Source of the DNA: Candidatus Kaiserbacteria bacterium
Lineage (GTDB): Bacteria; Patescibacteriota; Minisyncoccia; Phycocordibacterales; UBA918
Assembly (NCBI GenBank): GCA_019634005.1
Contig: JAHQWD010000003.1
Span: 2,525 to 66,524 of the forward strand
Direction of reading: 5' to 3'
Length of the DNA stretch: 64,000 nucleotides
The translations under genes and the position numbers were made by a program. The stretch's first letter is position 1, and the number at the start of each line of letters is the position of its first letter. The notes below the pieces were generated by a model. The model did not search any database. It was given only the letters and a program-made list of their open reading frames with translations, and was not told where the DNA came from. Shown here one piece after another: positions 1-18,504 of this stretch.

Positions 1-336
1 GATGGTGGCGATACGTGGAGTTGGTACGACGATATCTCGTCTTCGTGTAAAAATAGTGGGGTGGGGTGTAGTGTTGAACCGACCGATGAGTCCATCGTCT
101 CTTGTACAAGTGACAACTGCCTCTTGTACGTCGACGAGGACAGAAGCTCTGGTGCGTACTATACACACAGCAGTAGTGCAGGAGATGCATCACCATATAC
201 ACGCACTATTGTGCTTGAAGAGACGACGTCTGATGAAGAGGTGTTGGTAACATCAACGGTGTCATGGACATCGTCATATGTAGAGGATACAGTCAGTATT
301 GTGGAGAAGACCGTACTTTTTAATCTCTATGAGTAA
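1..336 (+). CDS. 3'-end of a Ser/Thr-rich protein continuing from upstream of the window (partial)
   Basis: Frame 1 is open from nt 1 to the stop at 334-336. The composition is Ser/Thr/Asp-rich and looks like a secreted or pilin-like protein. No start codon lies within the window. Confidence 0.4.
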   Translation, partial: DGGDTWSWYDDISSSCKNSGVGCSVEPTDESIVSCTSDNCLLYVDEDRSSGAYYTHSSSAGDASPYTRTIVLEETTSDEEVLVTSTVSWTSSYVEDTVSIVEKTVLFNLYE

Positions 337-886
337 CAGACATATACAAAAGAATACTCGAGGCTTCACCATCTTAATTGCAGTGGTGGTTGCATCTATT
401 GTACTTTCGATAGGTCTTGCAGTTTTGGGTATTGTATTTAAGCAGCTGCAGATCTCTGGTATTGCACATGAATCTGAGACCGCATTCCATGCGGCGTACG
501 CGGGTGCAGAGTGTGCAGAGTTTAATGATCGGTCAGAAGATCAGAATGAGTTTGATGTGCCAGGGAATGGTTCACTTCAGAGTAGTGCGACAAATATCAC
601 CTGTATGGGCGTCTCAAGTACAAATAGTAACGGAAGAGCACGGAGTGGCGATGAACAGCGTTTTGAGTTCACGTGGGATGGAGGAAATGCATGTACCATT
701 CTCAGTTTTTATAAGTTCTACAGTACTTCAAGCTCCGTGTCGGTGATCGTGGAAGGAACACAGCTCCGAAGTGACTGCCCTGTGGGTGCAGAGTGTTCAG
801 TGGTAAAAGCACGGGGATATAACGCTTCATGTTCTGGTCTCACGGGCGATCGAGTTGTTGAACGAGAGATTACCATCGTCTTTTGA
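329..886 (+). CDS. prepilin-type N-terminal domain protein (type IV pilin-like / pseudopilin)
   Basis: ATG at 329 gives MSNRHIQKNTRGFTILIAVVVASIVLSIGLAVLG. This is a short basic leader, then G|FT and a ~20-aa hydrophobic helix typical of class III signal peptides (Glu+5 is absent). The rest of the protein is Ser/Thr/Cys-rich. Confidence 0.5.
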   Translation: MSNRHIQKNTRGFTILIAVVVASIVLSIGLAVLGIVFKQLQISGIAHESETAFHAAYAGAECAEFNDRSEDQNEFDVPGNGSLQSSATNITCMGVSSTNSNGRARSGDEQRFEFTWDGGNACTILSFYKFYSTSSSVSVIVEGTQLRSDCPVGAECSVVKARGYNASCSGLTGDRVVEREITIVF

Positions 887-901
887 TATAGTAGGTGTAC
901 T

Positions 902-2911
902 ATGGCACCAAAAGATATCCAGAAACGGGTGAAAGAATTGCATCGGCTTACCGCACGACATTTTAAGCTGTATCACGAAAAGGATGCTCCAGAGATATCT
1001 GATGAGGCATATGATTCTCTCGTTCGAGAATTGAAGGAACTTGAGGAACAGTATCCAGAACTGAAAGAGAAAGGGACACCGACCGAAACCGTTGGTGCTA
1101 TGTCGTCTGCGTTTACAAAAGTACGTCATGCGGTACGTCAGTGGTCTTTTGATAACGTATTTTCCGAGACAGAGCTTCGGGAATGGGAACAGAAACTGTA
1201 TCGCCTACTCGAAAAGGAAGGTGTGAGTGAGAAGTTGACCTATGTCGCAGAGCACAAGATTGACGGACTGAAGGTTATTGCAGAATACAGAAAGGGTGTC
1301 TTGTATCGTGCAACGACGCGGGGAGATGGAGTCGTTGGAGAAGATATTACACACACCGCACGGACGGTGAAAGATATTCCTGAGCAACTTACCGAAAAAG
1401 TCGATGTCATTGTCGTTGGTGAAGCATGGCTTTCACGGTCAGAGTTTGCGCGCATCAATACAGAACGGGAGAAAAATGGTGAGGCGCGCTTTGCGAACCC
1501 TCGTAACGCAGCGGCAGGGTCGCTTCGTCAGTTAGATTCTGAGGTAACTAGAGGACGGAACCTTTCGTTCTTTGCCTATGATATTGACGCTTACTCTGGC
1601 TCAAAAGAGCCGAAGACGCAGGAAGGGGAACTAAAGACATTGAAACGTCTTGGTTTTCAGGTGAACCCTCATTACGCGGTGTGTACAAGCATAGATGCCG
1701 TCATTACTTTTTATAAGAAATGGGTGCCGAAACGAGAAAGTGAAGAGTATGGTATGGACGGTGTGGTGCTGAAAGTTGATAGCGTCGAATTGCAGAAGCA
1801 GCTGGGATATACGGCGAAATCTCCACGGTTTGGTATTGCGTATAAGTTTCCTTCAGAACAAGCAAGTACTGTCATCGAAGATATACAGCTTCAGGTGGGA
1901 CGTACGGGTGTGCTGACCCCTGTGGCACACCTTCGCCCCGTCTTCTTAGACGGTTCGACTGTTTCGCGTGCGACGCTGCATAATGAGGATCAGATCAAGC
2001 GACTGGATGTTCGTGTGGGAGACACCGTTATTCTCCAGAAAGCGGGAGACATCATCCCAGAGATTGTCTCAGTCCTTACAGAGCTCCGTCCAGAGAAGAC
2101 AAAGCCGTATCGTTTCCCAAAGCGGGTGGCAGAGTGTGGTGGCGATGGAAGTATCGAGCGAGTTCCTGGGGAAGCAGCGTATCGGTGTGTCTCTAAGGAT
2201 TCCGATACACTTCATCGACAACGGCTGTACTACTTTGTTTCCAAAGGGGCATTTAATATGGACGGTGTTGGCCCACGGATCATCGATCTTCTTTTGGAAC
2301 AGAACCTAATCAATACGCCTGTAGACCTCTTTACACTGGAAGTAGGAGATCTAGAGCAGCTTCCTGGGTTTAAAGAAAAGGCAGCAGAGAATGTGGTGAA
2401 AGCGATCGCTGATGCAAAAGAAGTGCCACTCCATCGGTTACTCATTGCGCTGTCGATAGATCACGTTGGAGAAGAGACTGCTCGTCTTATCGCAGAGCAC
2501 TTTGGATCGCTTCTAAAGATCCGAGAGGCATCACTTGAAGAACTTACCTCCATACATGGTGTGGGGGAGATTGTGGCAGCGTCACTTTTTGCATGGTTGA
2601 AGGATCCACTCCATGCAGAGATGCTCGATGCGCTTTTGAAACATATTGCAGTGGTTAATCCACAGAAGAAGGCAGACGGTGTTTTTTCTGGGAAGACACT
2701 GGTCTTTACAGGCACGCTTCCAACGCTTTCTCGTAATGAAGCCAAAGATATGGCGCGGAATGCAGGAGGACATGTCGCAAGTTCTGTGTCTAAAAATACA
2801 GATTATGTGGTACTTGGTACTGATGCGGGGTCTAAAGAGGAGAAGGCGAGAGAGCTCGGGGTGTCGCTTTTGAGCGAGGAGGAGTTTTTGAAGATGTTGC
2901 AAAGAACTTGA
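902..2911 (+). CDS. ligA: NAD-dependent DNA ligase LigA
   Basis: 669 aa. Contains the KIDG adenylation motif (EHKIDGLKV), OB-fold and Zn-finger cysteines (CGGDGSIERVPGEAAYRC), HhH repeats and a C-terminal BRCT (FSGKTLVFTGTL). Confidence 0.95.
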   Translation: MAPKDIQKRVKELHRLTARHFKLYHEKDAPEISDEAYDSLVRELKELEEQYPELKEKGTPTETVGAMSSAFTKVRHAVRQWSFDNVFSETELREWEQKLYRLLEKEGVSEKLTYVAEHKIDGLKVIAEYRKGVLYRATTRGDGVVGEDITHTARTVKDIPEQLTEKVDVIVVGEAWLSRSEFARINTEREKNGEARFANPRNAAAGSLRQLDSEVTRGRNLSFFAYDIDAYSGSKEPKTQEGELKTLKRLGFQVNPHYAVCTSIDAVITFYKKWVPKRESEEYGMDGVVLKVDSVELQKQLGYTAKSPRFGIAYKFPSEQASTVIEDIQLQVGRTGVLTPVAHLRPVFLDGSTVSRATLHNEDQIKRLDVRVGDTVILQKAGDIIPEIVSVLTELRPEKTKPYRFPKRVAECGGDGSIERVPGEAAYRCVSKDSDTLHRQRLYYFVSKGAFNMDGVGPRIIDLLLEQNLINTPVDLFTLEVGDLEQLPGFKEKAAENVVKAIADAKEVPLHRLLIALSIDHVGEETARLIAEHFGSLLKIREASLEELTSIHGVGEIVAASLFAWLKDPLHAEMLDALLKHIAVVNPQKKADGVFSGKTLVFTGTLPTLSRNEAKDMARNAGGHVASSVSKNTDYVVLGTDAGSKEEKARELGVSLLSEEEFLKMLQRT

Positions 2912-2967
2912 TAATAGTGTTGTATAAAAGTTCTTGTGGAGAGTCATCCTGAGCATAGGAGGAGAAT

Positions 2968-3246
2968 ATGATCGTTGCAAAAGCAGACCGCCAGTTTGCA
3001 CTTCGCGCTGCACGTGCTGCTGGGTTTGACCACACAGACTATATTGTCGTCTGGGTGCAATATCCTGGTCAGAAAGAAGAGTTGGGCTTTGCGCCCACTA
3101 CGGTGGAATGTTCCTTTGTAGAAGGAGTTCCTCACAGAGCGAGCGCAGACGTATGGTGTGTCAATTCAGAGACAGGACGTCTCCGTAAGGAGTCTAAAAA
3201 ATGTCGCCCTCGCGATGGCAGTACCTGGGAGTGTTGTTCGACCTAA
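2968..3246 (+). CDS. hypothetical protein
   Basis: A strong RBS (aggagga) lies 7 nt upstream of the ATG. 92 aa, no recognisable domain. Confidence 0.45.
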   Translation: MIVAKADRQFALRAARAAGFDHTDYIVVWVQYPGQKEELGFAPTTVECSFVEGVPHRASADVWCVNSETGRLRKESKKCRPRDGSTWECCST

Positions 3247-3341
3247 ATCCGTCGCCTTCAACAGGACAAAGAAAACCAAACCTTTGTCTCGTACGAAGGG
3301 GCGGTTTTCTTTTTATGTATTGAAATGGTACTATCTCTCGT

Positions 3342-3632
3342 ATGAAACGAGAGGATATAGAGCATCTGGCGACACTCGCACGTATTGATCTAAAGGATGA
3401 AGAGGTTGCGTCTTTGACGGACAGCATCACAAGTATTTTGGGGTATGTGAGTGATGTAAATGCAATTACAACCGAAGAGAAGCCTAAAGAGGTGGGTGCA
3501 CTTTATAATGTCATGCGAGAAGATGAGGAGACACATGAGCCAGGACAGTACACAGAAGCAATTTTAAATGAAGCACCGAAGCGGGAAGGACAGTACATTC
3601 AAGTTAAGAAGATACTCGGTGACAATGAATAA
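3342..3632 (+). CDS. gatC: Asp-tRNA(Asn)/Glu-tRNA(Gln) amidotransferase subunit C
   Basis: 96 aa with the typical GatC pattern (IEHLATLARIDLKDEEV...). Sits immediately upstream of and overlapping gatA. Confidence 0.85.
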   Translation: MKREDIEHLATLARIDLKDEEVASLTDSITSILGYVSDVNAITTEEKPKEVGALYNVMREDEETHEPGQYTEAILNEAPKREGQYIQVKKILGDNE

Positions 3633-5040
3633 TATGACCATACAAGAATTACGGAAAAAATTTGTGGAAGGGTCATATACCCCAGTGGATGCCCTTGCCG
3701 ACGTAAAGAAGGCTATTGCAGAGCGGGACGGTGAGGTGCACGCATACCTTGAGCTTTTTGAAGATGCGGATGAGGCTGCACAGAAAGCGGCGGAGCGATA
3801 TAAGGAGGAAGGAGACGATGCTCCACCACTTTTGGGAATGCCCATTGCGATTAAGAACAACATCCTGATTGAAGGAAAGAAGACGACTGCTTCATCAAAG
3901 ATCCTTGAAAACTATGTCGCTACATATGACGCAACGGTTATTGCAAAGCTTCGTGAAGCGGGTGCTGTGTTTGTTGGATCCACAAACCTTGATGAGTTTG
4001 CGATGGGAACTTCTACAGAGAACTCTGCGTTTGGACCGACCAGAAACCCACATGATGTGACTCGTGTTCCAGGAGGTTCATCTGGGGGATCTGCAGCAGC
4101 GGTCGCTATGGGAGGGGCGGTTGCAGCGTTGGGAACTGATACGGGGGGATCTGTACGACAGCCTGCAGCGTTTTGTGGTTTGGTGGGGTATAAGCCGACC
4201 TATGGTGCAGTGTCTCGCCATGGGCTGATTGCTATGGGATCCTCATTAGATCAGGCGGGACCGCTCACAAACTCTGTCTCCGACGCAGAGCTGATCCATA
4301 ACATTATCAAAGGAGATGATTCTATGGATTCCACTACGATTACAGATGATACGTACAAAGAAGTGTCAGTGAAGGAGACGTATCGTATTGGGGTGCCACG
4401 ACATTTCCTTCAAGAAGGACTCAGTGAGAGTGTTCGTACTGTATTTGAAGATACGCTCAAAAAACTTGAGGCAGCGGGCCATGAGATTGTCGATGTATCA
4501 GTACCGCTTATGGAAAAAGGGCTTGCAGCGTACTACATCGTTATGCCTGCAGAGGTCTCCTCGAACCTCGCTCGCTTTGATGGGGTGCGCTATGGGCTTC
4601 GTATTGAGGGAGATGATCTCCTCTCTGAGTATCACAAGACACGTGCAGAAGGATTTGGTGCAGAGGTGAAACGCCGTATTCTTCTTGGAACATACGTTCT
4701 TTCCTCAGGATACTATGATGCGTATTACGGAAAGGCAGAGCAGGTACGAGAAATGATGCGTGCAGAACTCCGAGAGGTGTTTGCTGACGTTGATGCACTT
4801 ATGCTCCCAACAACACCAACACCTGCATTCAAGCTTGGTGCAAAAAGTGATCCACTCTCACTTTACCTAGAGGATATCTTTACGGTACCAGCGAACCTTA
4901 CGGGTGTTCCAGCAATCTCTGTACCCGCAGGAACCGTGGATGAAGACGGCGTAGCACTTCCTGTTGGGGTACAATGTATAGGACCACATGCAGGGGATGC
5001 ACGAGTATTTGATCTTGGAAAGAAAATACTTGGAGAATAG
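3625..5040 (+). CDS. gatA: Glu-tRNA(Gln) amidotransferase subunit A (amidase family)
   Basis: Amidase signature GGSSGGSAAAVA and a Ser-cisSer-Lys triad context. Start chosen at ATG 3625 (MNNMTIQELRKKF), overlapping the gatC stop. The computed ORF starts further upstream, at 3568. Confidence 0.9.
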   Translation: MNNMTIQELRKKFVEGSYTPVDALADVKKAIAERDGEVHAYLELFEDADEAAQKAAERYKEEGDDAPPLLGMPIAIKNNILIEGKKTTASSKILENYVATYDATVIAKLREAGAVFVGSTNLDEFAMGTSTENSAFGPTRNPHDVTRVPGGSSGGSAAAVAMGGAVAALGTDTGGSVRQPAAFCGLVGYKPTYGAVSRHGLIAMGSSLDQAGPLTNSVSDAELIHNIIKGDDSMDSTTITDDTYKEVSVKETYRIGVPRHFLQEGLSESVRTVFEDTLKKLEAAGHEIVDVSVPLMEKGLAAYYIVMPAEVSSNLARFDGVRYGLRIEGDDLLSEYHKTRAEGFGAEVKRRILLGTYVLSSGYYDAYYGKAEQVREMMRAELREVFADVDALMLPTTPTPAFKLGAKSDPLSLYLEDIFTVPANLTGVPAISVPAGTVDEDGVALPVGVQCIGPHAGDARVFDLGKKILGE

Positions 5041-5055
5041 TGCCCTGCCTGTGTC

Positions 5056-5685
5056 ATGCTTATGACACCTGACGGTAACGATATTATAGTTCAAACACGC
5101 GGCATTGATTTTATGCCGCTGGTTCGTTGGATTGCGCATTTCTTTGGATATGGAGATGATCCACTCGCAGGGCCAACTGTTGATGATTTCATCCTCAGTC
5201 TCTCAAACTTTTGGGAGGTGTATTCTGTTATTGCACTTTTGCTCTCGTTGCTTTTTTTCGCTGGATTTGTGTATGCATATATAAGATACAACCAACTGCT
5301 CGTGGAAGAAGACAATTTGTTACTTGCAGAGGAGCAGAGATGGAGAGAATTGCGTGAGGGTGCAGGAACTCAAAATACAGAATGGGATGCAATTAAAGCA
5401 CATGTTGCAACCGAAAACCCAAATGATTGGAAACAGGCGATCATTGCAGCGGATGTGATGCTGGGGGAGATACTGGAGGTCTCAGGGTACATTGGAGAGA
5501 CTATTGGTGAGCAGCTCAAATCGGCAAATGCACAGCCGTTTCCATCTATACGAGATGCGTGGGATGCACACTTAGTGCGTAATAAAATTGCGCATGGCGG
5601 GCCTGAGTTTGTCCTTACAAAACGGCTTGCACAGGACACTATTGTGCAATATGAGCGGGTATTTCGAGAGTTTGGGGCTGTATAG
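5056..5685 (+). CDS. hypothetical membrane-anchored protein
   Basis: 209 aa with one predicted TM helix (VIALLLSLLFFAGFVYAYI). No recognisable domain. Confidence 0.5.
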   Translation: MLMTPDGNDIIVQTRGIDFMPLVRWIAHFFGYGDDPLAGPTVDDFILSLSNFWEVYSVIALLLSLLFFAGFVYAYIRYNQLLVEEDNLLLAEEQRWRELREGAGTQNTEWDAIKAHVATENPNDWKQAIIAADVMLGEILEVSGYIGETIGEQLKSANAQPFPSIRDAWDAHLVRNKIAHGGPEFVLTKRLAQDTIVQYERVFREFGAV

Positions 5686-5729
5686 GAACTATTGCGCCGA
5701 TACGTAAAAACTGGTAGTGTACTGCACAC

Positions 5730-5800
5730 AGCGGGGTAGAGGAGAGGTACCTCGGGAGGCTCATAACCTCCAGACCCCGGTTCGATTCCGGGCCCCGCAA
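5730..5800 (+). tRNA. tRNA-Met (CAT), initiator-like
   Basis: Folds as a cloverleaf with a CTCATAA anticodon loop, a TTCGATT T-loop and no encoded CCA. The sequence AGCGGGGTAGAGG...CCGGGCCCCGCAA resembles the E. coli initiator (CGCGGGG...CCCCCGCAACCA). Positions 1:72 are A:A, a mismatch as in bacterial initiators. Confidence 0.8.
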
Positions 5801-5807
5801 CACGTCA

Positions 5808-5843
5808 AGAAAACACCGATATACTCGGTGTTTTCTTGTTTTT
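5808..5843 (+). terminator. intrinsic terminator
   Basis: Hairpin AAGAAAACACCG-atatact-CGGTGTTTTCTT followed by a TTGTTTTT run. Confidence 0.7.
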
Positions 5844-5872
5844 GAGGCTTTGAGATGGTATTCTCTCTTCAC

Positions 5873-5946
5873 GTCGGCGTAGCTCAGTTGGTTAGAGCAC
5901 AACACTCATAAAGTTGGGGTCGGAGGTTCAAATCCTCCCGTCGACA
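5873..5946 (+). tRNA. tRNA-Met (CAT), elongator or tRNA-Ile2 (lysidine) type
   Basis: GTCGGCGTAGCTCAGTTGGTTAGAGC...CTCATAA...GGAGGTTCAAATCCTCCCGTCGACA. Anticodon CAT at 5907-5909. Pair 31:39 is A:A. Confidence 0.8.
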
Positions 5947-5953
5947 CTTTTAC

Positions 5954-5983
5954 AAAGACCGCTCTCTGGGCGGTCTTTGTGTA
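5954..5983 (+). terminator. intrinsic terminator
   Basis: AAAGACCGC-tctctg-GGCGGTCTTT followed by a gtgt/T-rich stretch. Confidence 0.65.
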
Positions 5984-6080
5984 TAAATAGGATATATCCA
6001 CGTACTGTTATACTACAATAGTATAAGTGCCTATATTACGTTCATTACATCAAGACTTTTTCAAAAAATGGAGCAATGAC

Positions 6081-6698
6081 ATGGCTTATGTTTTAGGGTT
6101 TTTTGCTGCAGATGGGAGTATGCTAGAGAATAATCGCGGAGCGCACTATATTGAGTTTCATATTACGGACAAAAAGATTTTAGAACAGATGAGGGAAGCT
6201 ATGGGCTCTAATCACAAGATTAAAGAGAGGAAAAGAGATGAAAAATGGAAGCCTATCTACAGACTGCAAATAGGGAGTAAAGTATTCTATGAAGATTTAC
6301 AAAAACATGGTTTTACTCAAGCAAAGAGTCATACTTTAAAATTACCCTTAGTTCCAAAGAAATATATTGCAGATTTTGTTCGTGGGTATTTTGATGGAGA
6401 TGGATGTGTTCACTTTAAACAGTATAAAGTGAGGGGTCGGAAAAAGCCAAAGTGGGTCTTCCAGACTCGTTTTACTTCAGGAAGTAAAAATTTCTTGCAG
6501 GATTTACACAATCTATTAAAAGATTACGGTGTAGCAAGAGGTTTCATTACGAAGAAAAATAGGGGGCACGAACTTGTGTTCAGTCATCGCGATGGTGTTG
6601 CATTATATCGATTAATGTATAATAATACCCCTCGTATTTATTTAAAACGTAAATACAACATCTTCAGAAAAGCAATGAAGACGCTTTATGGAGAATAA
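6081..6698 (+). CDS. LAGLIDADG-family homing endonuclease (double-motif, free-standing)
   Basis: Two LAGLIDADG motifs are present: MAYVLGFFAADGSM and ADFVRGYFDGDGCVHF. The RBS tggag lies 10 nt upstream of ATG 6081. The stop is 2 nt before tRNA-Asp exon 1. AT-rich compared with the flanking sequence. Confidence 0.85.
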   Translation: MAYVLGFFAADGSMLENNRGAHYIEFHITDKKILEQMREAMGSNHKIKERKRDEKWKPIYRLQIGSKVFYEDLQKHGFTQAKSHTLKLPLVPKKYIADFVRGYFDGDGCVHFKQYKVRGRKKPKWVFQTRFTSGSKNFLQDLHNLLKDYGVARGFITKKNRGHELVFSHRDGVALYRLMYNNTPRIYLKRKYNIFRKAMKTLYGE

Positions 6699-6700
6699 CT

Positions 6701-7015
6701 GCGGGCGTAGCTCAATTGGTTAGAGCACCCGCCTGTAGACGTGCAGCTTTCCGTCCGAAAGACGGATTGAAACTTTCCGGGATATCGGTGAAGGCTAAGT
6801 CATTGATGCAGTTAGCTTGAAAAGGTTACTGAGGAGATATGCGAATACCGAGGGAACCCATAACACAAAAACACATAGTTATGGGGCGCCGTAGAGACTA
6901 GATACCGGGATACCTAAGGATAATGAATCTATGGTAAAGATATAGTCCGTGCCATTATGAAAATAGTGGATTTCACGCACGCGGGAGGTTGAGGGTTCGA
7001 GTCCCTTCGCTCGCG
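6701..7015 (+). tRNA. tRNA-Asp (GTC) interrupted by a group I intron (exons 6701-6736 and 6978-7015)
   Basis: Joined exons read GCGGGCGTAGCTCAATTGGTTAGAGCACCCGCCTGT|CACGCGGGAGGTTGAGGGTTCGAGTCCCTTCGCTCGCG. This closely resembles E. coli tRNA-Asp (CCTGCCTGTCACGCAGG...GGTTCGAGTCC), with discriminator G. Confidence 0.8.
6737..6977 (+). mobile_element. group I self-splicing intron (IC3-like tRNA intron) in the anticodon loop of tRNA-Asp
   Basis: The core GCCGTAGAGACTAGATACCGGGATACCTAAGGATAATGAATCTATGG resembles, from memory, the Azoarcus/Anabaena tRNA intron P7/P3/P8-P9 region (GUAGAGACUAGA...CCUAAGG...CUAUGG). The IGS 5'-GUGCAG (6741-6746) can pair with exon CUGU in P1, giving U.G at the 5' splice site, and with the 3' exon CAC in P10. 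A terminal G at 6977 fits omega-G. A P9 extension hairpin carries a GAAA loop. Confidence 0.8.
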
Positions 7016-7056
7016 CAGTTAGAAAAAGAGTCCACGTTTGTGGGCTCTTTTTGTAT
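7011..7056 (+). repeat. direct repeat copy A: tRNA-Asp 3' end plus intrinsic terminator
   Basis: tcgcgcagttagaaaaagagtccacgtttgtgggctctttttgtat. The hairpin is AAAAAGAGTCCAC-gttt-GTGGGCTCTTTTT. A near-identical copy lies at 7752-7796. Confidence 0.8.
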
Positions 7057-7094
7057 AGAGAGTGGTATTGGAATTGTGTGGTATTTTTATCTGT

Positions 7095-7727
7095 ATGGAA
7101 AACAAGATTCTCTGGCACGGTACCGGTAGGTATAAATATGATTCAGAAGGAAATGTCTACGATATCTTTCAGGGAATTATTGAAGATGGAGGATTGGTCC
7201 CGCACTTAGACGAATGGGATCAAAAGCGAGGTGCTTGCTATTCCATATCAACAACTCGCTCGCGTGCATATGCTCGGCTGTATGCGAGCCTTTTCTTTCC
7301 GTCTGATAAACGTAGTTTAAAAGAATTATTTAGAAGACTTATATGGTGTCTTCGTTTCTTCCTCACGAGCAAGTATGTTGCGTGGATGGAATATACACCG
7401 TTTAGACCACACATAACTGATTTTCGGAGGAAGATTATATCTTGGGCAAAGAAATACTCATCAGATACTCGGTCTTTCATATATCTTTTTCTTTGGGGAG
7501 GTACTGACATCCCCAATAATTACCCAATACTGATATGCATAAAAGGAGATGGTATTGCTCCAACCAAGGGATCTCGTTTTGTCGATTTGCATGAAATACG
7601 TAGTGAAGAGAAAATTTCCCTAGAAGATTTTAAGTGTATTGAAGTGCCCAAAGAGCATATTTCAGAGATTCATAGCCTATTACATGTGGCAGGGTGTGAG
7701 ATTCCTGTCGTAACCTTAGACAGTTAG
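7095..7727 (+). CDS. hypothetical protein (cargo of the repeat-flanked segment)
   Basis: MENKILWHGTGRYKYDSEGNVYDIF... ~210 aa, AT-rich, with no recognisable domain. The computed ORF starts with GTG at 7062; ATG 7095 was chosen as start. Confidence 0.5.
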   Translation: MENKILWHGTGRYKYDSEGNVYDIFQGIIEDGGLVPHLDEWDQKRGACYSISTTRSRAYARLYASLFFPSDKRSLKELFRRLIWCLRFFLTSKYVAWMEYTPFRPHITDFRRKIISWAKKYSSDTRSFIYLFLWGGTDIPNNYPILICIKGDGIAPTKGSRFVDLHEIRSEEKISLEDFKCIEVPKEHISEIHSLLHVAGCEIPVVTLDS

Positions 7728-7751
7728 TGTAGCTCTAACCGCATATACCAG

Positions 7752-7796
7752 TTCGCGCATAGAAAAAAGAGTCCACGTTTGTGGGCTCTTTTTGTA
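7752..7796 (+). repeat. direct repeat copy B (terminator)
   Basis: tcgcgcatagaaaaaagagtccacgtttgtgggctctttttgtat. 42 of 44 positions are identical to copy A, including 7 nt of the tRNA-Asp acceptor 3' strand. Confidence 0.8.
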
Positions 7797-7829
7797 TTTC
7801 TGAACGGTTTTTGGTATTCTTTGGCGTAC

Positions 7830-7905
7830 GCCATTGTAGCTCAGTCGGTAGAGCGCATCCATGGTAAGGATGAGGTCCCCGGTTCAATCCCGGGCAATGG
7901 CTCCA
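7830..7905 (+). tRNA. tRNA-Thr (GGT)
   Basis: GCCATTGTAGCTCAGTCGGTAGAGCGCATCCATGGTAAGGATGAGGTCCCCGGTTCAATCCCGGGCAATGGCTCCA. The CCA is encoded and the anticodon loop is ATGGTAA. Confidence 0.9.
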
Positions 7906-7908
7906 AAG

Positions 7909-7941
7909 ACAGAAACCCGTCAGACATGACGGGTTTCTGTT
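7909..7941 (+). terminator. intrinsic terminator
   Basis: AGAAACCCGTC-agaca-TGACGGGTTTCT followed by gtt. Confidence 0.7.
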
Positions 7942-7975
7942 ATACTCAAGCCACATGACAAAAGAGGAGATCACT

Positions 7976-8830
7976 ATGCGTATAGAGGAGATTGAGGCGG
8001 CAATGAATCTGCCAGATTTTTGGAATGACTCCGCAAAAGCACAAGATTTAATAAAAGAGTTGCAGGAACTGAAGGATCAGGCTGAAGGAAAAGGGAAATA
8101 TGATCGCAACAACGCGGTCGTCACCATTGTTGCAGGTGCTGGTGGGGATGATGCAGAAGATTTTGCTCGTATGCTCGTGGAGATGTACCAGAAATATGCA
8201 GAAAAGAGAGGGTGGGGGGTTTTGGTGATAGATTCCAACCCAAATGATCACAATGGATATCGAAACATTGTTTTTGAGATAGAAGGAAATGGGGCGTACG
8301 GAGAACTCCAGACAGAGTCTGGGGTACATCGTCTGGTACGCATCTCACCATTTAACTCCAATGGGAAGCGGCAGACTTCATTTGTACTCGTTGAGGTGTC
8401 TCCAAAACTGAAAGATCACAAGGAAGTAGAACTAAATGAAGACGATCTCGATATTTCTTTTGCACGTTCGGGTGGTGCTGGTGGGCAGAATGTAAACAAG
8501 CGAGAGACTGCGGTGCGTATTGTGCATACGCCAACGAATATCTCTGTACATGTATCTTCAGAGCGAAGCCAGCAGCAAAATAGAGAGAGAGCAATGACAC
8601 TTCTTGCAGGAAAGGTATATGCCTTTGAGGAGGAGCAACGAAAGCGGGAGCTGAAGGGATTGTCCGTGGAGAAGTCAGTGAAGATAGAATGGGGGAGTCA
8701 GATTCGTTCATACGTACTCCACCCGTATCAAATGGTGAAAGATCATCGGACTGATGTGGAGGTTCGTGATGTAGAGAGGGTACTTGATGGTGATATACAG
8801 GAGTTTTTGGACGCGGCAAGGGAACTGTAG
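7976..8830 (+). CDS. prfB: peptide chain release factor 2 (N-terminally short form)
   Basis: GGQ motif ([11 protein letters not shown]) and the RF2-specific SPF motif ([15 protein letters not shown]). RBS aagaggag before ATG 7976. No in-frame UGA or frameshift site is visible. Confidence 0.9.
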
Positions 8831-8872
8831 ATAAGTGTTTGACACTGTCAGACACCATGATACCATTTTGGT

Positions 8873-9133
8873 ATGAAGAAAAAGAAGGATAAAAAAGTGG
8901 AAGTGACCATGCGGGAGTTTCTTCGTAATCCTGGGAAAATGGGCGGCATGGTTCGTGATGGTACTGCTATTGAAGTGACCAAAAATGGTGCACCGTTTTT
9001 TACGGCTGTGCCTGCCTTTGAGAAAAAAGGGATTACAGGGAAAGACATCGTTCGATTGATAAAACCAAAAAAGAGTGGTTTGCATTCTCCCAATATCAGT
9101 ACACGTGTAGATGAAATGCTCTATGGAAAATGA
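8873..9133 (+). CDS. type II antitoxin (Phd/YefM-like, VapB-type)
   Basis: Small protein (MREFLRNPGKM...) overlapping the downstream PIN toxin. An imperfect palindrome GTGTTTGACAcTGTCAGACAC at 8836-8856 lies in its promoter. The start could alternatively be 8909. Confidence 0.65.
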   Translation: MKKKKDKKVEVTMREFLRNPGKMGGMVRDGTAIEVTKNGAPFFTAVPAFEKKGITGKDIVRLIKPKKSGLHSPNISTRVDEMLYGK

Positions 9134-9500
9134 AATTATACTCGATTCTTGTGTGTGGCTATCGTTCTTTTCTCCTGAAGATCGCAACCATAAGCAGGCG
9201 GTGGAGATACTGGAGGAGATAGAAGAACACATTGTTGTACCTGAGATTGTGTTTGGGGAGGTTGTGACAATACTTCGTTTGAGAAAAAAAGAGGACGAGG
9301 TGAAACAGTTTTATGAATTGTGTATGGGCGCATCGATGTTCTTACCTACGGGGCGTCTCTTGTGGAGGACTGCTGTTCGGTACCCACATGCCCCTAAGAA
9401 ACTATCCTTTGTTGACGCTGCACTGTATATACTTTCCAAAGAGTATGAGGTTGTGACCTTTGATAAGGTGCTCAAAAAGGCTATTGAAATGAGGAGTTAA
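9111..9500 (+). CDS. PIN-domain toxin (VapC-like)
   Basis: PIN acidic residues are in the right context (IILDSCVWLSFF, FGEVV, SFVDAALYILSKEYEVVTFDK). Overlaps the antitoxin. An alternative start is 9123. Confidence 0.75.
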   Translation: MKCSMENEIILDSCVWLSFFSPEDRNHKQAVEILEEIEEHIVVPEIVFGEVVTILRLRKKEDEVKQFYELCMGASMFLPTGRLLWRTAVRYPHAPKKLSFVDAALYILSKEYEVVTFDKVLKKAIEMRS

Positions 9501-9565
9501 GGGTGTATACACTACAGTACTGGTCTCTGTCAGAGATTTACAGTAGAATAGGTTCATTAAGGAAT

Positions 9566-10249
9566 ATGATCTATTTCGACAACGTCTCAAAGATTTATAG
9601 TGGCGGCGAATCAATCGCGCTTGAGGAAGTGACTTTCCAGGTTGCACCGAAGGAGTTTGTCTCAATTGTGGGACACTCTGGTGCGGGGAAGACGACGCTT
9701 CTAAAGATGCTCATTGCAGAGGATCAGCCGACTGGAGGGGTCGTCTTCTTTGAGTCTCTTGATGTCCATTCTATTCCAAAGAGCAGGCTCCCAGACTTTC
9801 GTCGAAAGATAGGAACAGTCTTTCAAGACTTCAAACTGCTTCCACACAAGACCGCATATGAGAACGTTGCCTTTGCTATGGAGGCAAATGGACGGACGGA
9901 TGAAGAGATCGCGGAGAATGTACCACAGGCACTGGAGCTTGTAGATCTTGCGGATAAAATGTGGAATTTTCCTGGGGAGCTCTCTGGAGGAGAAAAACAG
10001 CGGGTGGCAATTGCACGCGCAATTGTGAATCAACCAGACATCATCATTGCAGATGAGCCAACGGGAAACCTCGATCCAATTGCGACCTATGAGGTGGTAC
10101 AGATCTTAAAGAAGATCAACGATCTTGGTACAACGGTTATTATGACCACGCATAATAAGGGGGTGATCGACGCGCTTGAGAAGCGGGTCATCACGATGGA
10201 TGATGGACGGATTATCAGAGACGATAAAGAGGGTAAATACGTTTTGTAA
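9566..10249 (+). CDS. ftsE: cell-division ABC transporter ATP-binding protein FtsE
   Basis: Walker A (GHSGAGKTT), ABC signature (LSGGEKQRVAIARA) and Walker B (IIIADEPTGNLD). RBS aagga lies before ATG 9566. Confidence 0.9.
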   Translation: MIYFDNVSKIYSGGESIALEEVTFQVAPKEFVSIVGHSGAGKTTLLKMLIAEDQPTGGVVFFESLDVHSIPKSRLPDFRRKIGTVFQDFKLLPHKTAYENVAFAMEANGRTDEEIAENVPQALELVDLADKMWNFPGELSGGEKQRVAIARAIVNQPDIIIADEPTGNLDPIATYEVVQILKKINDLGTTVIMTTHNKGVIDALEKRVITMDDGRIIRDDKEGKYVL

Positions 10250-10252
10250 TAT

Positions 10253-11173
10253 ATGTGGGTAGATTTTAAACGAATTGTTCGGTCTGGATTTATTGGGTTT
10301 TGGCGAAATGCCTATGTCTCTTTTGCGTCCATCTTTGTGATGACTATCACACTTTTTGTTATTGGAAGCGCTATTTTTATGAGCCAACTCCTTGATGCGT
10401 CACTTACCAGTCTTCGAGAGAAGGTAGATGTGAACGTGTATCTGGTTACCTCAGCGCTTGAGGAGGATGTCGCACGACTGAAGACGTCACTTGAGGCACT
10501 TTCTGATGTTGCCGAAGTGAATTACACGTCACGTGCAGAAGCGTTGGAACAGTTCCGTCTTCGTCACGAGAACGATGAATTAACGCTCCAAGCACTCGAT
10601 GAGCTCGGGGAGAATCCTCTGGGAGCATCACTCTCTATCCGTGCAACTGATCCATCACGATATGAAAGTATTGCAGAATTCCTTGAGACACAGCAGGCGA
10701 AAGAGAGTCCTGATGCGCCAGTAATCGATCGTATTAACTTTTCACAGAATAAGGTGGCGATTGATAAACTAACTTCTATTATTGGTGCAGTAGAACAGAC
10801 GGGGTATGTAGCCAGTATTATCCTAGTCATTGTAACGGTACTCATTACACTGAATACTATTCGGCTTGCCATCTTTACCACCCGTGAAGAGATATCTGTT
10901 ATGCGACTTGTGGGAGCAGGAAATATGTTTATTCGGGGACCGTTTGTGTTCCAGGGAGTTATGTATGGACTGATTGCGGGAGTGCTCACGCTTCTCATCC
11001 TTTACCCGATTGTGTTGTGGCTTGGACCAGCGACAGAGACATTCTTCGGTATCTCGGTCTTTCATTACTATGTTACAGAGTTTGGCACCATCTTCCTCAT
11101 TATTGTGGGGTCAGGTGTGGTTTTGGGAGCACTCTCGAGTATGCTCGCAATTGCCCGATATCTAAAAGTCTAA
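10253..11173 (+). CDS. ftsX: cell-division permease FtsX
   Basis: Immediately downstream of ftsE. Has an N-terminal TM helix, a periplasmic domain and three C-terminal TM helices (FtsX fold). Confidence 0.85.
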   Translation: MWVDFKRIVRSGFIGFWRNAYVSFASIFVMTITLFVIGSAIFMSQLLDASLTSLREKVDVNVYLVTSALEEDVARLKTSLEALSDVAEVNYTSRAEALEQFRLRHENDELTLQALDELGENPLGASLSIRATDPSRYESIAEFLETQQAKESPDAPVIDRINFSQNKVAIDKLTSIIGAVEQTGYVASIILVIVTVLITLNTIRLAIFTTREEISVMRLVGAGNMFIRGPFVFQGVMYGLIAGVLTLLILYPIVLWLGPATETFFGISVFHYYVTEFGTIFLIIVGSGVVLGALSSMLAIARYLKV

Positions 11174-11188
11174 AATACAAAAAACGCT

Positions 11189-12880
11189 ATGGCACGGAAC
11201 ACGGAGAAACGACAGACAGGAAGAAAAGCTCAAAAACGGTCGACCAACAAACAGCACAAGTTTCTCTTCGTTGTTGGCGGTGTTATGAGTGGCGTTGGAA
11301 AAGGAGTCGCGTCCTCGTCTATAGCGAAGATTCTCCAAGCACGTGGGCTGACCGTAACCGCTATTAAAATAGACCCGTATATCAACGTTGATGCGGGCAC
11401 CATGAATCCGACAGAACACGGGGAGGTATTTGTACTTGGGGGAGGGTTGGAGACGGATCAAGACATGGGAAATTACGAACGATTTCTCGGTACCGATATT
11501 CCTGATATCAATTACATGACAACAGGGAGTGTGTACCAAGAGGTCATCCGAAAAGAACGTAATTTGGAATACGATGGAAAGAATGTGGAGGTAGTACCGC
11601 ATATTCCACTTCAGGTCATAAAGCGGATTAAAAAAGCCGCACAGGTTGCGAATGCAGACGTCACCATCATAGAGATTGGAGGAACGGTAGGAGAGTATCA
11701 GAACATCCTCTTCCTTGAGGCAGTACGTATGATGAAGACCAAAACACCTGATGATGTTGCGGTCGTTATGGTTTCATATCTTCCTGTACCAGGAAGTATT
11801 GGAGAGATGAAGACAAAGCCGACACAGACTGCTGCACGGACACTAAACAGTGCGGGTGTGTTTGCAGACTTCATCCTTGCACGTGGTCCTGTCGCGCTTG
11901 ATAAGAAACGAAAAGAGAAGATTGCACAGTTTTGTAATGTGGAGCCACAGAATGTCATCTCTGCCCCCGATGTCGCGAGTGTGTACGATGTACCCCTCAA
12001 TTTTGAGAAGGATAAACTCTCGGAGCGTATTTGTAACGTGCTCAATATCAAGAAGATACAGAAATCAGATCTCAGCGCATGGCGTCGTTTTGTCGCAAAG
12101 TCCAAGAATGGACATGACACCGTGAAGATTGCGGTTGTCGGGAAGTACTTTAATTCAGGGGACTTTATTCTCTCTGACGTGTATCTTTCTGTCCTTGAGG
12201 CAATTAAATATTCTGCGTACAAACTTGGATTGAAGCCAGATATCCACTACATCTCCTCACTTCCGTTTGAAGATAAAAAGAAGCTCAAGGAGTTAAAGCA
12301 GTATGACGGCATCCTTATCCCTGGCGGATTTGGCACGACGGGCATTCTTGGAAAGTTGAACGTAGTTAAATACGCGAGAGAGAATAAGATTCCGTACTTT
12401 GGTATCTGCTACGGTATGCAACTTGCGGTCTTGGAGTACGCGAAAAATAAGCTCCGTATGAAGAATGTAAGTACTACGGAGATTGATCCGTCTGCGCAAC
12501 ATCTCGTCATTGATATCATGCCAGAACAGAAAGAGAAGGTTGCTAAAAGTGACATGGGAGGCACCATGCGTCTTGGGGAGTATCCTGCAGTCTTGAAGCG
12601 AGGAAGTATCGCACGTAAGGCATATGGCGCTGATGAGATCAGTGAGCGGCATCGACACCGATATGAGGTGAATCCAGAGTACGTGGAGAAGTTATCTGCG
12701 GGCGGATTAGTATTCTCTGGAACATCTCCAGACGAACGACTTATGGAAATTGTAGAGTTACCCAAAGATATCCACCCATTCTTTGTAGGTGCACAGTTCC
12801 ATCCAGAGTTTCATGCACGACCACTCTCACCACATCCTTTGTTTACCGCTTTTGTGAAGGCTTCGTACGAGGGGAAGTAG
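11189..12880 (+). CDS. pyrG: CTP synthase
   Basis: N-terminal synthetase domain (FVVGGVMSGVGKGVASSSIAKIL) and a glutamine amidotransferase domain with GICYGMQ. A ~25-aa basic N-terminal extension precedes them. Confidence 0.95.
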   Translation: MARNTEKRQTGRKAQKRSTNKQHKFLFVVGGVMSGVGKGVASSSIAKILQARGLTVTAIKIDPYINVDAGTMNPTEHGEVFVLGGGLETDQDMGNYERFLGTDIPDINYMTTGSVYQEVIRKERNLEYDGKNVEVVPHIPLQVIKRIKKAAQVANADVTIIEIGGTVGEYQNILFLEAVRMMKTKTPDDVAVVMVSYLPVPGSIGEMKTKPTQTAARTLNSAGVFADFILARGPVALDKKRKEKIAQFCNVEPQNVISAPDVASVYDVPLNFEKDKLSERICNVLNIKKIQKSDLSAWRRFVAKSKNGHDTVKIAVVGKYFNSGDFILSDVYLSVLEAIKYSAYKLGLKPDIHYISSLPFEDKKKLKELKQYDGILIPGGFGTTGILGKLNVVKYARENKIPYFGICYGMQLAVLEYAKNKLRMKNVSTTEIDPSAQHLVIDIMPEQKEKVAKSDMGGTMRLGEYPAVLKRGSIARKAYGADEISERHRHRYEVNPEYVEKLSAGGLVFSGTSPDERLMEIVELPKDIHPFFVGAQFHPEFHARPLSPHPLFTAFVKASYEGK

Positions 12881-17586: not shown

Positions 17587-18504
17587 ATGATAAAATACAT
17601 GTATATGAAAACACTTATCACACTTATCGTTGTTGCACTTATTGGCCTTGGAGCGTATGTCTTTTTCTACACTCCAGACACGGAGGAATATACACCTTCG
17701 GTCACAGAAGAACAAAGTACCATGGAGGAGGATACAGATACTATGGATCGAGTAGTAGAGGTTGAAAAAGAGACAGAGACAGTCATTGGAACGTCTGTTG
17801 AGGGACGGGACATTACTGCATATCACTATGGAGAAGGAAACACAGAACTCCTCTTTGTTGGCGGTATCCACGGAGGGTACTCTTGGAACACATCACTCGT
17901 TGCCTATGAGCTCATGGACTATCTTGAGAAAGAATCAGAAGTGATTCCTGAGACTGTCCGTGTGACGGTTATTCCAACACTGAATCCCGACGGTCTTGCA
18001 ACTCTTCTTGGAAGCGCAGATCGTTTCAGTGCGAATGATGTACCAGAGGGAAATACGACTGCGGCACGCTTCAATGCGAATGACGTGGATCTTAACCGTA
18101 ACTTTGATTGCGATTGGCAGGAGACTGGCAAGTGGCAGAATACCGACGTAAGCGGCGGATCGGCACCGTTCTCCGAGCCTGAAGCGGAGGCACTCCGCGC
18201 GTATATTGGAGATGATGCACCAGATGCAGTTGTTGTCTGGTACAGCGCGGGAGGAGGAGTCTTTGCTTCAAGTTGTCACAATGGTGTCTCCGAAGAGACG
18301 CTGGCACTTACCGAACTGTATGCGGAGGCCTCAGGATATACTGCTTATGAGAGTTTCGATTTCTACACCATTACTGGTGATATGGTGAACTGGCTTGCGA
18401 AAGAAGGTATTCCTGCAGTAAGCGTCCTTCTTACCACACATACCGACACCGAGTGGTCTCGGAATAAACGCGGTATCGATGCACTATTCGCTACGTATAA
18501 ATAA
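17587..18504 (+). CDS. M14-like zinc carboxypeptidase family protein, predicted catalytically inactive paralog
   Basis: N-terminal TM anchor. Carries the family motifs VDLNRNFD and VIPTLNPDG. However HGGYS, VVWYSA and SVLLTT replace the HGGYE, FWHS and TVELRT of its downstream paralog. The start could be 17605. Confidence 0.7.
   Translation: MIKYMYMKTLITLIVVALIGLGAYVFFYTPDTEEYTPSVTEEQSTMEEDTDTMDRVVEVEKETETVIGTSVEGRDITAYHYGEGNTELLFVGGIHGGYSWNTSLVAYELMDYLEKESEVIPETVRVTVIPTLNPDGLATLLGSADRFSANDVPEGNTTAARFNANDVDLNRNFDCDWQETGKWQNTDVSGGSAPFSEPEAEALRAYIGDDAPDAVVVWYSAGGGVFASSCHNGVSEETLALTELYAEASGYTAYESFDFYTITGDMVNWLAKEGIPAVSVLLTTHTDTEWSRNKRGIDALFATYK

Follow-up and report, generated by a model that had tools for sequence, protein, structure and literature searches.

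The subject of this analysis is a single-gene unit of about 740 bp, hereafter the cassette, which lies between the tRNA-Asp and tRNA-Thr genes in a 64-kb stretch of Candidatus Kaiserbacteria DNA; this whole stretch is referred to as the window, and all coordinates count from its first letter. The cassette sits directly after the terminator of tRNA-Asp and is absent from the nearest relatives of its host, and it represents an insertion that is flanked by a duplicated 45-bp target (the end of the tRNA gene and its terminator), is located in a hot spot and is devoid of a recombinase. The explanation which best unites these observations, and to which we give slightly better than even chances, is that the cassette entered at the tRNA-Asp end and terminator, that co-conversion accompanying a group I intron later altered one copy of the duplicated target, and that the cargo is an enzyme using nicotinamide adenine dinucleotide (NAD).

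The duplicated target contains an exact direct repeat of 34 nt, AAAAAGAGTCCACGTTTGTGGGCTCTTTTTGTAT, at positions 7023-7056 and 7764-7797. When up to three mismatches were allowed this 34-mer occurred exactly twice within the window, while two matches were obtained in none of 100 shuffled sequences. To the left, homology reaches as far as the heptamer TCGCGCA (7011-7017 in copy A and 7753-7759 in copy B), and between this heptamer and the 34-mer lies a zone of insertion or deletion that reads GTTAG in copy A and TAGA in copy B. The best local alignment of the 165 nt preceding the open reading frame (ORF) of the cassette with the 165 nt following it was identical at 44 of 47 columns and scored 76, as compared to a maximum of 30 among 200 shuffles. 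An earlier reading of the region made from the sequence alone (the sequence-only reading) had described both copies, and these are real, although copy B had been placed at 7752-7796, one base to the left of its actual position. That reading had also assigned about 7 nt of the acceptor stem to the repeat, which needs correction, as the overlap with the tRNA amounts to 5 nt (7011-7015, representing the last four acceptor-stem bases and discriminator G73) followed by a genomic CA; the repeat thus starts at acceptor-stem position 69. Both copies fold into a 13-bp hairpin with a 4-nt loop, bordered by an A-run on one side and a T-run on the other (-20.7 and -18.3 kcal/mol, z about -4), and this is the shape of an intrinsic terminator. 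The concern that the repeat might prove to be a generic, reused terminator did not materialise, since the window holds just the two copies, and searches of JGI metagenome contigs and IMG/VR with the 20-nt core gave no exact match.

When metagenome contigs were scanned for the 3′ half of tRNA-Asp, 69 related loci emerged, and comparison with close relatives established what the site looks like when unoccupied. The contig Ga0070726_10000857 (locus L106) is collinear with window positions 1-12632 at 73-79% nucleotide identity, its prfB product being 92% identical, and its gene order is tRNA-Met, tRNA-Met, tRNA-Asp, tRNA-Thr, prfB, with neither the cargo nor the LAGLIDADG gene and intron that accompany tRNA-Asp in the window. 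In L106 an identical, intron-less tRNA-Asp is followed by a single related terminator, AAAAAGTCCACGAGAGTGGGCTTTTTGTAT, and then by the orthologue of the right flank of copy B, a flank which is also orthologous to the region upstream of tRNA-Thr in a second relative, L167. The same prfB protein was found at five places belonging to the same species as L106 (L162-L166, of which L162 is the L106 contig), all with the short 700-nt interval. The empty site which the sequence-only reading had predicted, namely tRNA-Asp, one terminator and tRNA-Thr, is therefore present in L106 and L162-L166. Vertical inheritance of the cassette was rejected on this ground, and the proposal of an acquired insertion, flanked by a duplication which begins within tRNA-Asp, is upheld. 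Relative to L106 the window carries three separate inserts, at 5948-6699 (the endonuclease gene), 6737-6977 (the intron) and approximately 7057-7752 (the cargo and the second terminator copy).

The second relative, L167, comes from a 722-kb contig and its prfB product is 88% identical. Its intron-less tRNA-Asp is identical, the trailer reads TACA, and the terminator, AAAAAGAGTCCACGTTTGTGGCCTCTTTTTTGTAT, is almost identical. Beyond the same GTAT, L167 harbours an unrelated gene for a 112-amino-acid membrane protein with its own TGcTGGTATACT box, beyond which follow ACGCTTTGTAT, the conserved tRNA-Thr promoter region and tRNA-Thr, while the more distant loci L008 and L010 hold other genes in this spacer. 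Because L106, L167, L008 and L010 each contain different DNA there, the spacer between tRNA-Asp and tRNA-Thr is hypervariable, and it is an insertion hot spot. Between the orthologous terminators of L106 and L167 and those of the window there are differences in the length of the stem, in the loop or at single bases, whereas the two copies in the window are identical at 34 of 34 positions, which speaks for a recent common origin of the two copies. The DNA found in L106 is a hairpin-rich insert of 125 nt (reverse-complement coordinates 9343-9451) that lies slightly more to the right, between the tRNA-Asp terminator box and tRNA-Thr, with an outer helix, GGTGCAGCAG/CUGCUGCACC, and inner hairpins bearing UGUAAC and UGUAC loops; this insert is absent from the window and from L167.

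The insert of the window comprises, in order, a putative promoter, the ORF, 24-25 nt and the copy of the tRNA end and terminator (Table 1). It looks like a complete and self-contained unit, with a likely promoter, an intact ORF that retains every residue invariant in its family, and a terminator, so that the suggestion of a decayed element is unlikely to hold. Its lower G+C content, which had been recognised from the start, amounts to 40.1% for the cargo as compared to 46.3% for the window. In the window and its relatives the 5′ ends of tRNA-Met2 and tRNA-Thr and the prfB ATG are each preceded, at a distance of 6-12 nt, by a TGnTATWCT box, which is also found before the cargo of L167; in the window these boxes are located at 5838-5870, 7079-7087, 7812-7820 and 7941-7950. 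Such boxes suggest that this organism employs extended -10 promoters without a -35 element and produces leaderless mRNAs, and the cargo mRNA is apparently leaderless as well. A sigma-70 scan, which requires a -35 element, gave no call at the cargo box. The right flanks of copies A and B are about 64% similar over 25-30 nt because both carry this promoter box, and this simpler explanation was preferred over an extension of the repeat.

Table 1. Features of the tRNA-Asp region of the window
Feature	Position	Strand	Remarks
LAGLIDADG homing-endonuclease gene (predicted), free-standing	6027..6698	+	ends 2 nt before tRNA-Asp; second insertion relative to relatives
tRNA-Asp(GUC) exon 1	6701..6736	+	ends at U35; 100% identical to L106
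Group I intron	6737..6977	+	RF00028; absent from L106 and L167; third insertion relative to relatives
tRNA-Asp exon 2	6978..7015	+	ends at discriminator G73
Repeat copy A	7011..7056	+	last 5 nt of tRNA-Asp, CA, trailer GTTAG, 34-nt terminator (hairpin 7023-7052)
Cargo promoter, putative extended -10 (TGgTATTTT)	7079..7087	+	7 nt before the ATG at 7095; read from sequence
Cargo ORF, 210 amino acids	7095..7727	+	unannotated family; ADP-ribosyltransferase-like predicted fold
Repeat copy B	7753..7797	+	TCGCGCA, trailer TAGA, identical 34-nt terminator; runs straight into native tRNA-Thr promoter region
tRNA-Thr promoter, putative extended -10 (TGgTATTCT)	7812..7820	+	read from sequence; conserved in L106 and L167
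tRNA-Thr(GGU)	7830..7905	+	conserved right-hand neighbour; own terminator 7909-7940, then prfB 7955-8830

We propose that the cassette entered by recombination within the 45-bp stretch that spans the last 5 nt of tRNA-Asp, a short trailer and the terminator hairpin. A small circle integrating at this stretch would be left with a copy at either end, comparable to attL and attR. As the element encodes no recombinase, the enzyme responsible would have to act in trans or be the host's own, in which case host recombination would have operated on 34-45 bp of homology. In an empty or excised allele the terminator would be joined directly to TTCTGAACGG, and in a circular form ...ACCAGT-TCGCGCA...GTAT would be joined to AGAGAGTGG.

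The differences between the two copies can be related to events in the adjacent tRNA gene, where the sequence-only reading had noticed neither a group I intron nor the LAGLIDADG gene next to it. The intron, 241 nt in length and located after U35, splits the tRNA-Asp gene (6701-7015), for which reason tRNA finders miss the gene, neither ARAGORN nor the Rfam tRNA model calling a tRNA-Asp at the locus in the unspliced sequence. The intron is inserted in the anticodon loop and matches Rfam RF00028 (50.2 bits as compared to a gathering score of 50, E 5.5e-11), exon 1 ends in CUGU with a U at -1, and the terminal base of the intron is a G. When the exons were joined in silico ARAGORN called tRNA-Asp(GTC), and the spliced 74-nt tRNA is identical at 74 of 74 positions to the intron-less tRNA-Asp of L106 and L167; the covariance match, the U at -1, the terminal G and the restoration of a canonical tRNA together place this insert among the group I introns. 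Of the 69 related loci, 9 share the 3′ end of this intron. The free-standing gene upstream matches Pfam LAGLIDADG_3 (4.8e-19, in two matched stretches) and a PHROG endonuclease family (5.7e-38), which assigns it to the LAGLIDADG domain proteins as a predicted endonuclease. It has a G+C content of 35.4%, as compared to the 46.3% of the window, is probably co-transcribed with tRNA-Asp, and is absent in L106 and L167, where just 67-68 nt separate tRNA-Met from tRNA-Asp. Homologues that are 40-50% identical lie directly upstream of tRNA-Asp in nine related loci, six of which contain the intron; the remaining three (L100, L111 and L157) are intron-less and have a 2-nt insertion in the D-arm of tRNA-Asp (GGTTAGTAGCAC). 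This distribution is in keeping with a free-standing endonuclease that would lose its tRNA-Asp target through the intron as well as through the D-arm change, and suggests that the two represent alternative escapes from cleavage.

The trailer that distinguishes copy A goes with the intron: among 57 distinct tRNA-Asp alleles GTTAG was found in 7 of 10 intron-containing as compared to 2 of 47 intron-less alleles, and within the T-stem clade of the window in 3 of 3 as compared to 0 of 19. The TAGA of copy B is close to the native TACA of L167. In our reconstruction the duplication would originally have been perfect, and later homing of the intron, driven by the adjacent LAGLIDADG endonuclease, would have converted copy A only, with co-conversion changing tRNA-Asp and its trailer from TAGA to GTTAG. 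The sole differences between the repeat copies would then be attributable to co-conversion of the copy A trailer during intron homing.

The same neighbourhood can be read differently, with the endonuclease itself having triggered the insertion. Cleavage of an intron-less tRNA-Asp would have been repaired by copying a donor stretch composed of the endonuclease gene, an intron-containing tRNA-Asp, the GTTAG trailer, the terminator and the cargo, and the newly made strand would have been linked illegitimately, at TCGCGCA, to the resected right-hand end of the cut resident tRNA-Asp. In that case the tRNA end and terminator of the resident would survive as copy B, and all the DNA to the left of copy B would come from the donor. 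Such a repair event would account for the endonuclease gene and intron lying immediately to the left of the insert and being absent, both of them, from L106 and L167, for a copy A with the intron-linked trailer beside a copy B with a trailer like the native one of L167 and contiguous with the native tRNA-Thr promoter, for a copy B that starts inside the tRNA gene, and for a G+C content below that of the neighbours in all three inserts. We nevertheless regard it as unlikely, as the donor terminator would have to be identical to that of the recipient at 34 of 34 positions even though this terminator varies between close relatives, and as no donor arrangement with cargo after tRNA-Asp was encountered in about 170 loci, those related loci which have both endonuclease and intron carrying no cargo. 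Intron-linked LAGLIDADG enzymes usually cut near the intron insertion site, and in the window this site lies about 35 nt of spliced tRNA upstream of 7011.

Entry by recombination at the tRNA end, as we propose, would have parallels elsewhere in the lineage. In 19 of the 69 related loci the 3′ end of tRNA-Asp (19-23 nt, beginning in the T loop) is repeated 134-255 nt downstream, and in the units read the trailer and terminator are repeated along with it. These structured units occur singly or in tandem arrays of up to four copies, some of which are 100% identical (L107, at 328-919, has a 171-nt period with 100% identity and L124 a 162-nt period), and they were found in L107, L124, L104, L150, L155, L096, L102, L141, L146, L133, L139, L110, L094 and others. 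In the arrays examined (L104 and L124) the repeat stops on its right where the terminator T-run ends, which is also the case in the window. The T-stem clade to which the window belongs has units too (L104, L124, L125, L139 and L150), several with terminator copies identical to the first. The interior of a unit forms a three-way junction in which helix P1 (GGGACUC/GAGUCCC) uses the duplicated tRNA segment as its 3′ strand, P2 is a long hairpin and P3 a short hairpin with GUA in its loop. Across 14 distinct units 84.8% of cells pair as compared to 65% in shuffles, with none of 500 shuffles reaching the observed value, and compensatory changes were seen at 12 of 15 pairs in P2 and 4 of 5 in P3. 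The units have no Rfam match at E up to 1, and a hammerhead or other known ribozyme or RNA was discarded on this ground and because the conserved junctions misfit CUGANGA/GAAA; no ORF or integrase accompanies them among the 69 loci. Duplications of the tRNA-Asp end and terminator thus arise repeatedly in this lineage, and because a similar duplication recurs in about a quarter of the related loci the process looks like a property of the lineage and not a one-off. Judged by these sequence features the case in the window is an event of this kind in which the insert is a gene and the left boundary comes later.

The frequency of such units, including in the clade of the window, also opens the possibility that the repeat is older than the cargo, in that the cargo would have replaced the interior of an ancestral structured unit and part of the duplicated T loop would have been deleted. 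Copy B is preceded by GT (GTTCG-CGCA), which could represent GTTCGAGTCCCTTCGCTCGCGCA minus 14 nt between TCG repeats, and the bases before it, AACC..TACC, faintly resemble the unit 3′ motif CAACCTGTACC. A matching GT has a chance of about 1 in 16, however, the resemblance of 7728-7752 to a unit end is weak, the insert retains no GGGACTCGAA or GAGTCCC motif, and the two closest relatives, L106 and L167, have no structured unit at the site, and we consider a pre-existing repeat to be quite unlikely. A broader conjecture, in our estimate unlikely, is that this group of the Candidate Phyla Radiation (CPR) inserts small DNA units by tRNA-Asp without an element-encoded integrase, recognising and duplicating the tRNA 3′ end and terminator hairpin; one process would then yield both the cassette of the window and the 134-255-nt units, which would represent miniature mobile elements of a new class, or else an RNA serving as a guide to the site or as its mark, and members of the ADP-ribosyltransferase-like family would be among the cargo.

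The cargo protein is 100% identical to the NCBI hypothetical protein KTR10_01560, encoded on a 379-kb contig in a genome bin of Candidatus Kaiserbacteria. A first homology search returned 30 homologues at 35-61% identity (self-match excluded), and a profile search extended the family to 311 clusters at E <=0.001, one of them a 1017-amino-acid protein from an uncultured Caldimonas sp. that carries the NCBI name 'NUDIX hydrolase'. Among ten long family members three are fused to a NUDIX domain and three to an HD domain. The window protein is full length and keeps 19 of 19 family-invariant residues (H8, G9, G11, R12, Y15, D23, D42, S52, Y59, A60, Y63, A64, E99, D138, N142, P144, S160, E167 and R169). 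An AlphaFold2 model built with the family alignment has a pLDDT of 92.3 and a pTM of 0.89, and its best Foldseek match in the PDB, a weak one, is DarT (7omw; E 0.057, probability 0.85, TM-scores 0.43/0.46, about 10% identity). The next matches, all weak, are Tpt1, the A chains of cholera toxin and heat-labile enterotoxin, Arr and a RES toxin, so that the informative matches are all ADP-ribosyltransferase-fold proteins; a structure search of the BFVD viral library added nothing clear. We regard it as somewhat probable that the cargo is an NAD-using enzyme with an ADP-ribosyltransferase-like fold, and from the model it probably binds NAD+ and transfers or processes ADP-ribose, a chemistry which fits because family members are fused to NUDIX, an ADP-ribose-processing domain, and with which the invariant H8, Y59/Y63 and E167 may also agree.

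The proposal that the cargo could be a defence or toxin gene retains some weak support in this predicted fold, which it shares with DarT among others. At E up to 1 the protein has no match in Pfam, PADLOC or NCBIfam, and none in PHROGs, and a known defence or toxin family was rejected on this basis; no antitoxin gene neighbours it, and most homologues lie among ordinary chromosomal genes. Likewise, it does not belong to the DarT (DUF4433) family as judged by the absence of a sequence match to the family model, and a DarG-like macrodomain is adjacent neither to the cargo, whose neighbours are tRNA genes, nor to its homologues at the loci examined. The contexts of these homologues are varied and mostly tight, and none adjoins a tRNA. 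A phage or plasmid origin was also rejected, as tblastn with the cargo gave no match in INPHARED phages, PLSDB plasmids or IMG/VR.

One other family member is bracketed in a comparable manner. This homologue, P0022 of L090 and L091, is flanked by two copies of AAA(G/A)GTTCCAACATCGTCCCAGAC(G/A)GCCA, the L090 repeat being 29 nt long, identical at 27 of 29 positions and located at 3945-3993 and 4675-4723, 730 nt apart. The same motif is found three times in L169-L172 (YceG 76% identical), between unrelated small genes in the same YceG-MnmA interval (about 4995, 5342 and 6606 in L169). In L168 (YceG 80% identical) the interval holds yet other genes and the motif is absent; the interval is hypervariable. 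This motif may represent a cassette boundary, or it may be a shared operator upstream of promoters.

An operator of this sort has its counterpart in a further account of the window, which is that of an ordinary, vertically inherited arrangement in which a terminator or shared regulatory sequence is reused after two units, or else of an assembly chimera joined at the repeat. Every tRNA of the cluster has a hairpin terminator of its own, the flanking repeat in L090 and L169 lies just upstream of promoter-like boxes, and the junctions of the window have no confirmation from a second assembly. Reuse of a terminator fits poorly with a copy B which includes, beyond the terminator, the tRNA-Asp end TCGCGCA, with a repeat that occurs just twice in 64 kb and is unmatched in both the JGI metagenome contigs and IMG/VR, and with relatives that show one copy and no cargo. 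A chimera would still need some genome with cargo beside a tRNA-Asp end, and a 45-bp repeat is probably too short to make a typical short-read assembler join unrelated regions. Both forms of this account are in our view very improbable.

A number of observations weigh against entry of the cassette by recombination at the tRNA-Asp end and against the attendant view of its cargo. The sequence-only reading had noted that no integrase is present, and this was borne out: the sole ORF of the insert is the 210-amino-acid cargo without a recombinase domain, crude motif scans detected no tyrosine or serine recombinase in any window ORF, including the flanks within 1-12632 that are collinear with L106, nor in the 69 related tRNA-Asp loci, where two regular-expression matches near tRNA-Asp proved to be GatA, and no cognate recombinase for the repeat terminator was found in IMG/VR. 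With classical tRNA-targeting integrases the resulting repeats begin in the anticodon loop or T loop, unlike the present repeat, which overlaps the tRNA by only 5 nt. Neither a circular or excised form nor a second genome with the exact cassette was seen, the cargo being known from one contig, and the contig index contained no exact match to the cargo protein. A contig in SRR12681089 matches 7848-12330 at 100% identity, and the one further contig of the organism (L161) ends at 7848, leaving the junctions without an independent assembly; further copies of the repeat were searched for within 64 kb of the genome. At five of the seven loci with family members the gene is part of a tight array and lacks flanking repeats, for which reason mobility as a cassette is not a general trait of the cargo family. 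The ADP-ribosyltransferase assignment rests on the weak scores given above, and a PDB sequence-profile search with the cargo retrieved no ADP-ribosyltransferase or anything else relevant. Of the attL/attR signature that had been read into the repeats, the flanking duplication from the tRNA end therefore stands, while it comprises just 5 nt of tRNA and no recombinase, circle or autonomous partner was found to go with it, and the terms attL and attR are applied to the window by analogy.

Two further mechanisms of insertion were considered and rejected. A transposon is contradicted by the lack of terminal inverted repeats around the insert, and a 45-bp target duplication is far longer than any that transposases are known to make. 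A group II intron targeting the terminator would require a reverse transcriptase, which is lacking, and the start of the insert is not GUGYG.

Other variable insertions, and a duplication, were recorded in the surrounding DNA. Between prfB and ftsE (8873-9500) the window has a small ORF and a PIN-domain gene, a VapBC-like pair which is also present in L106 and is absent in L167, where ftsE directly follows prfB. Between ligA and gatC a lineage-specific insert of 430 nt (2912-3341), without a convincing ORF and with a 20-nt imperfect hairpin at 3268-3312, occupies a position at which L106 has 18 nt. At 17777-19060, within or between coding sequences, a segment of about 865 nt is duplicated in tandem (74-90% identity), probably representing a paralogous gene pair.

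The genomes of CPR bacteria (Patescibacteria) are small and usually described as poor in mobile elements and integrases. In the window a 2.3-kb tRNA cluster nevertheless holds three independent selfish or acquired inserts, namely a homing endonuclease gene, a group I intron and a single-gene cassette, and as the empty states survive in relatives it is possible to reconstruct in which order and by which mechanism these events took place. If entry did occur via the tRNA end and terminator without a recombinase of the element's own, it would represent a route of gene gain in reduced genomes. The cargo family, with about 311 unannotated clusters, a confident model and NUDIX and HD fusions, is a candidate new NAD/ADP-ribose enzyme family, and the structured units linked to tRNA-Asp merit a separate study.

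As regards known enzymes, it is DarT, Tpt1, cholera toxin and heat-labile enterotoxin A, Arr and RES that best match the high-confidence model of the cargo. An N-terminal W-H-G-T-G-R motif followed by later invariant Tyr and Glu residues is a further likeness to ADP-ribosyltransferase-fold enzymes, as are the NUDIX fusions, which fit an NAD-using enzyme. The cargo differs from these enzymes in having no Pfam, NCBIfam or PADLOC membership and TM-scores of only 0.43-0.46, and from DarT in the lack of a DarG-like macrodomain partner and in the ordinary chromosomal contexts of most homologues. The intron conforms to bacterial tRNA group I introns in its position in the anticodon loop, its U at -1 and its terminal G, in having the endonuclease gene outside the intron and directly upstream, and in the co-conversion of a flanking marker suggested by the association of the GTTAG trailer with the intron. 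It is distinguished by a CPR host and by tRNA-Asp as the target, the cleavage specificity being a prediction.

Like the islands and prophages that tyrosine integrases insert into tRNA genes, the cassette is bordered on one side by an intact tRNA and on the opposite side by a displaced piece of its 3′ part, in that copy A completes tRNA-Asp and copy B represents the displaced 3′ copy with 5 nt of the tRNA, and it further resembles them in the empty site of its relatives and in the foreign composition of its cargo. A repeat that runs through the terminator has precedents in proviruses of about 17 kb integrated at tRNA-Arg (L173/L176, L180/L189 and L183/L184), and classical att repeats can thus include a terminator. 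These IMG/VR proviruses of high-GC hosts (the above and L182/L187), with 3′-half repeats of tRNA-Arg(ACG) running through the terminator, were what the tRNA 3′-end pattern matched in that database, and they serve as a comparison only. The cassette differs from such islands in being about 0.7 kb in size with a single gene and no integrase, and in a repeat that starts 5 nt before the tRNA end instead of in the anticodon or T loop. Its absence from close relatives makes it a real, small, non-autonomous mobile unit at a tRNA 3′ end without its own integrase, and the sequence-only interpretation is partly supported, in that the insertion and the att-like repeat hold.

Elements mobilised in trans reportedly include the cis-mobilisable elements (CIMEs) of Streptococcus thermophilus and the integrative mobile elements exploiting Xer (IMEX), which are said to use the host XerCD. 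The cassette is like both in that att-like direct repeats flank an element without recombination genes of its own, and tandem accretion at one tRNA end, of up to four units, is seen in loci related to the window. It is unlike them in that motif scans of the window and the 69 loci and the search of IMG/VR revealed no cognate autonomous element or recombinase; it is also much smaller than the CIMEs described, and in place of a dif-like site it has a repeat that forms a perfect terminator palindrome around a 4-nt loop. From integron gene cassettes the unit is set apart by the absence from the window of an IntI integrase and an attI site (crude motif scan), by a hairpin that is a perfect 13-bp palindrome without the R''/L''-L'/R' architecture of attC or the GTTRRRY core, and by a promoter that it appears to carry itself. 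It nevertheless resembles them in being a single-ORF unit of about 0.7 kb which ends in a palindromic site and occupies a hypervariable array position, and the L090 homologue, lying between copies of a short motif that recurs among unrelated small genes in a relative, extends this likeness to integron cassettes.

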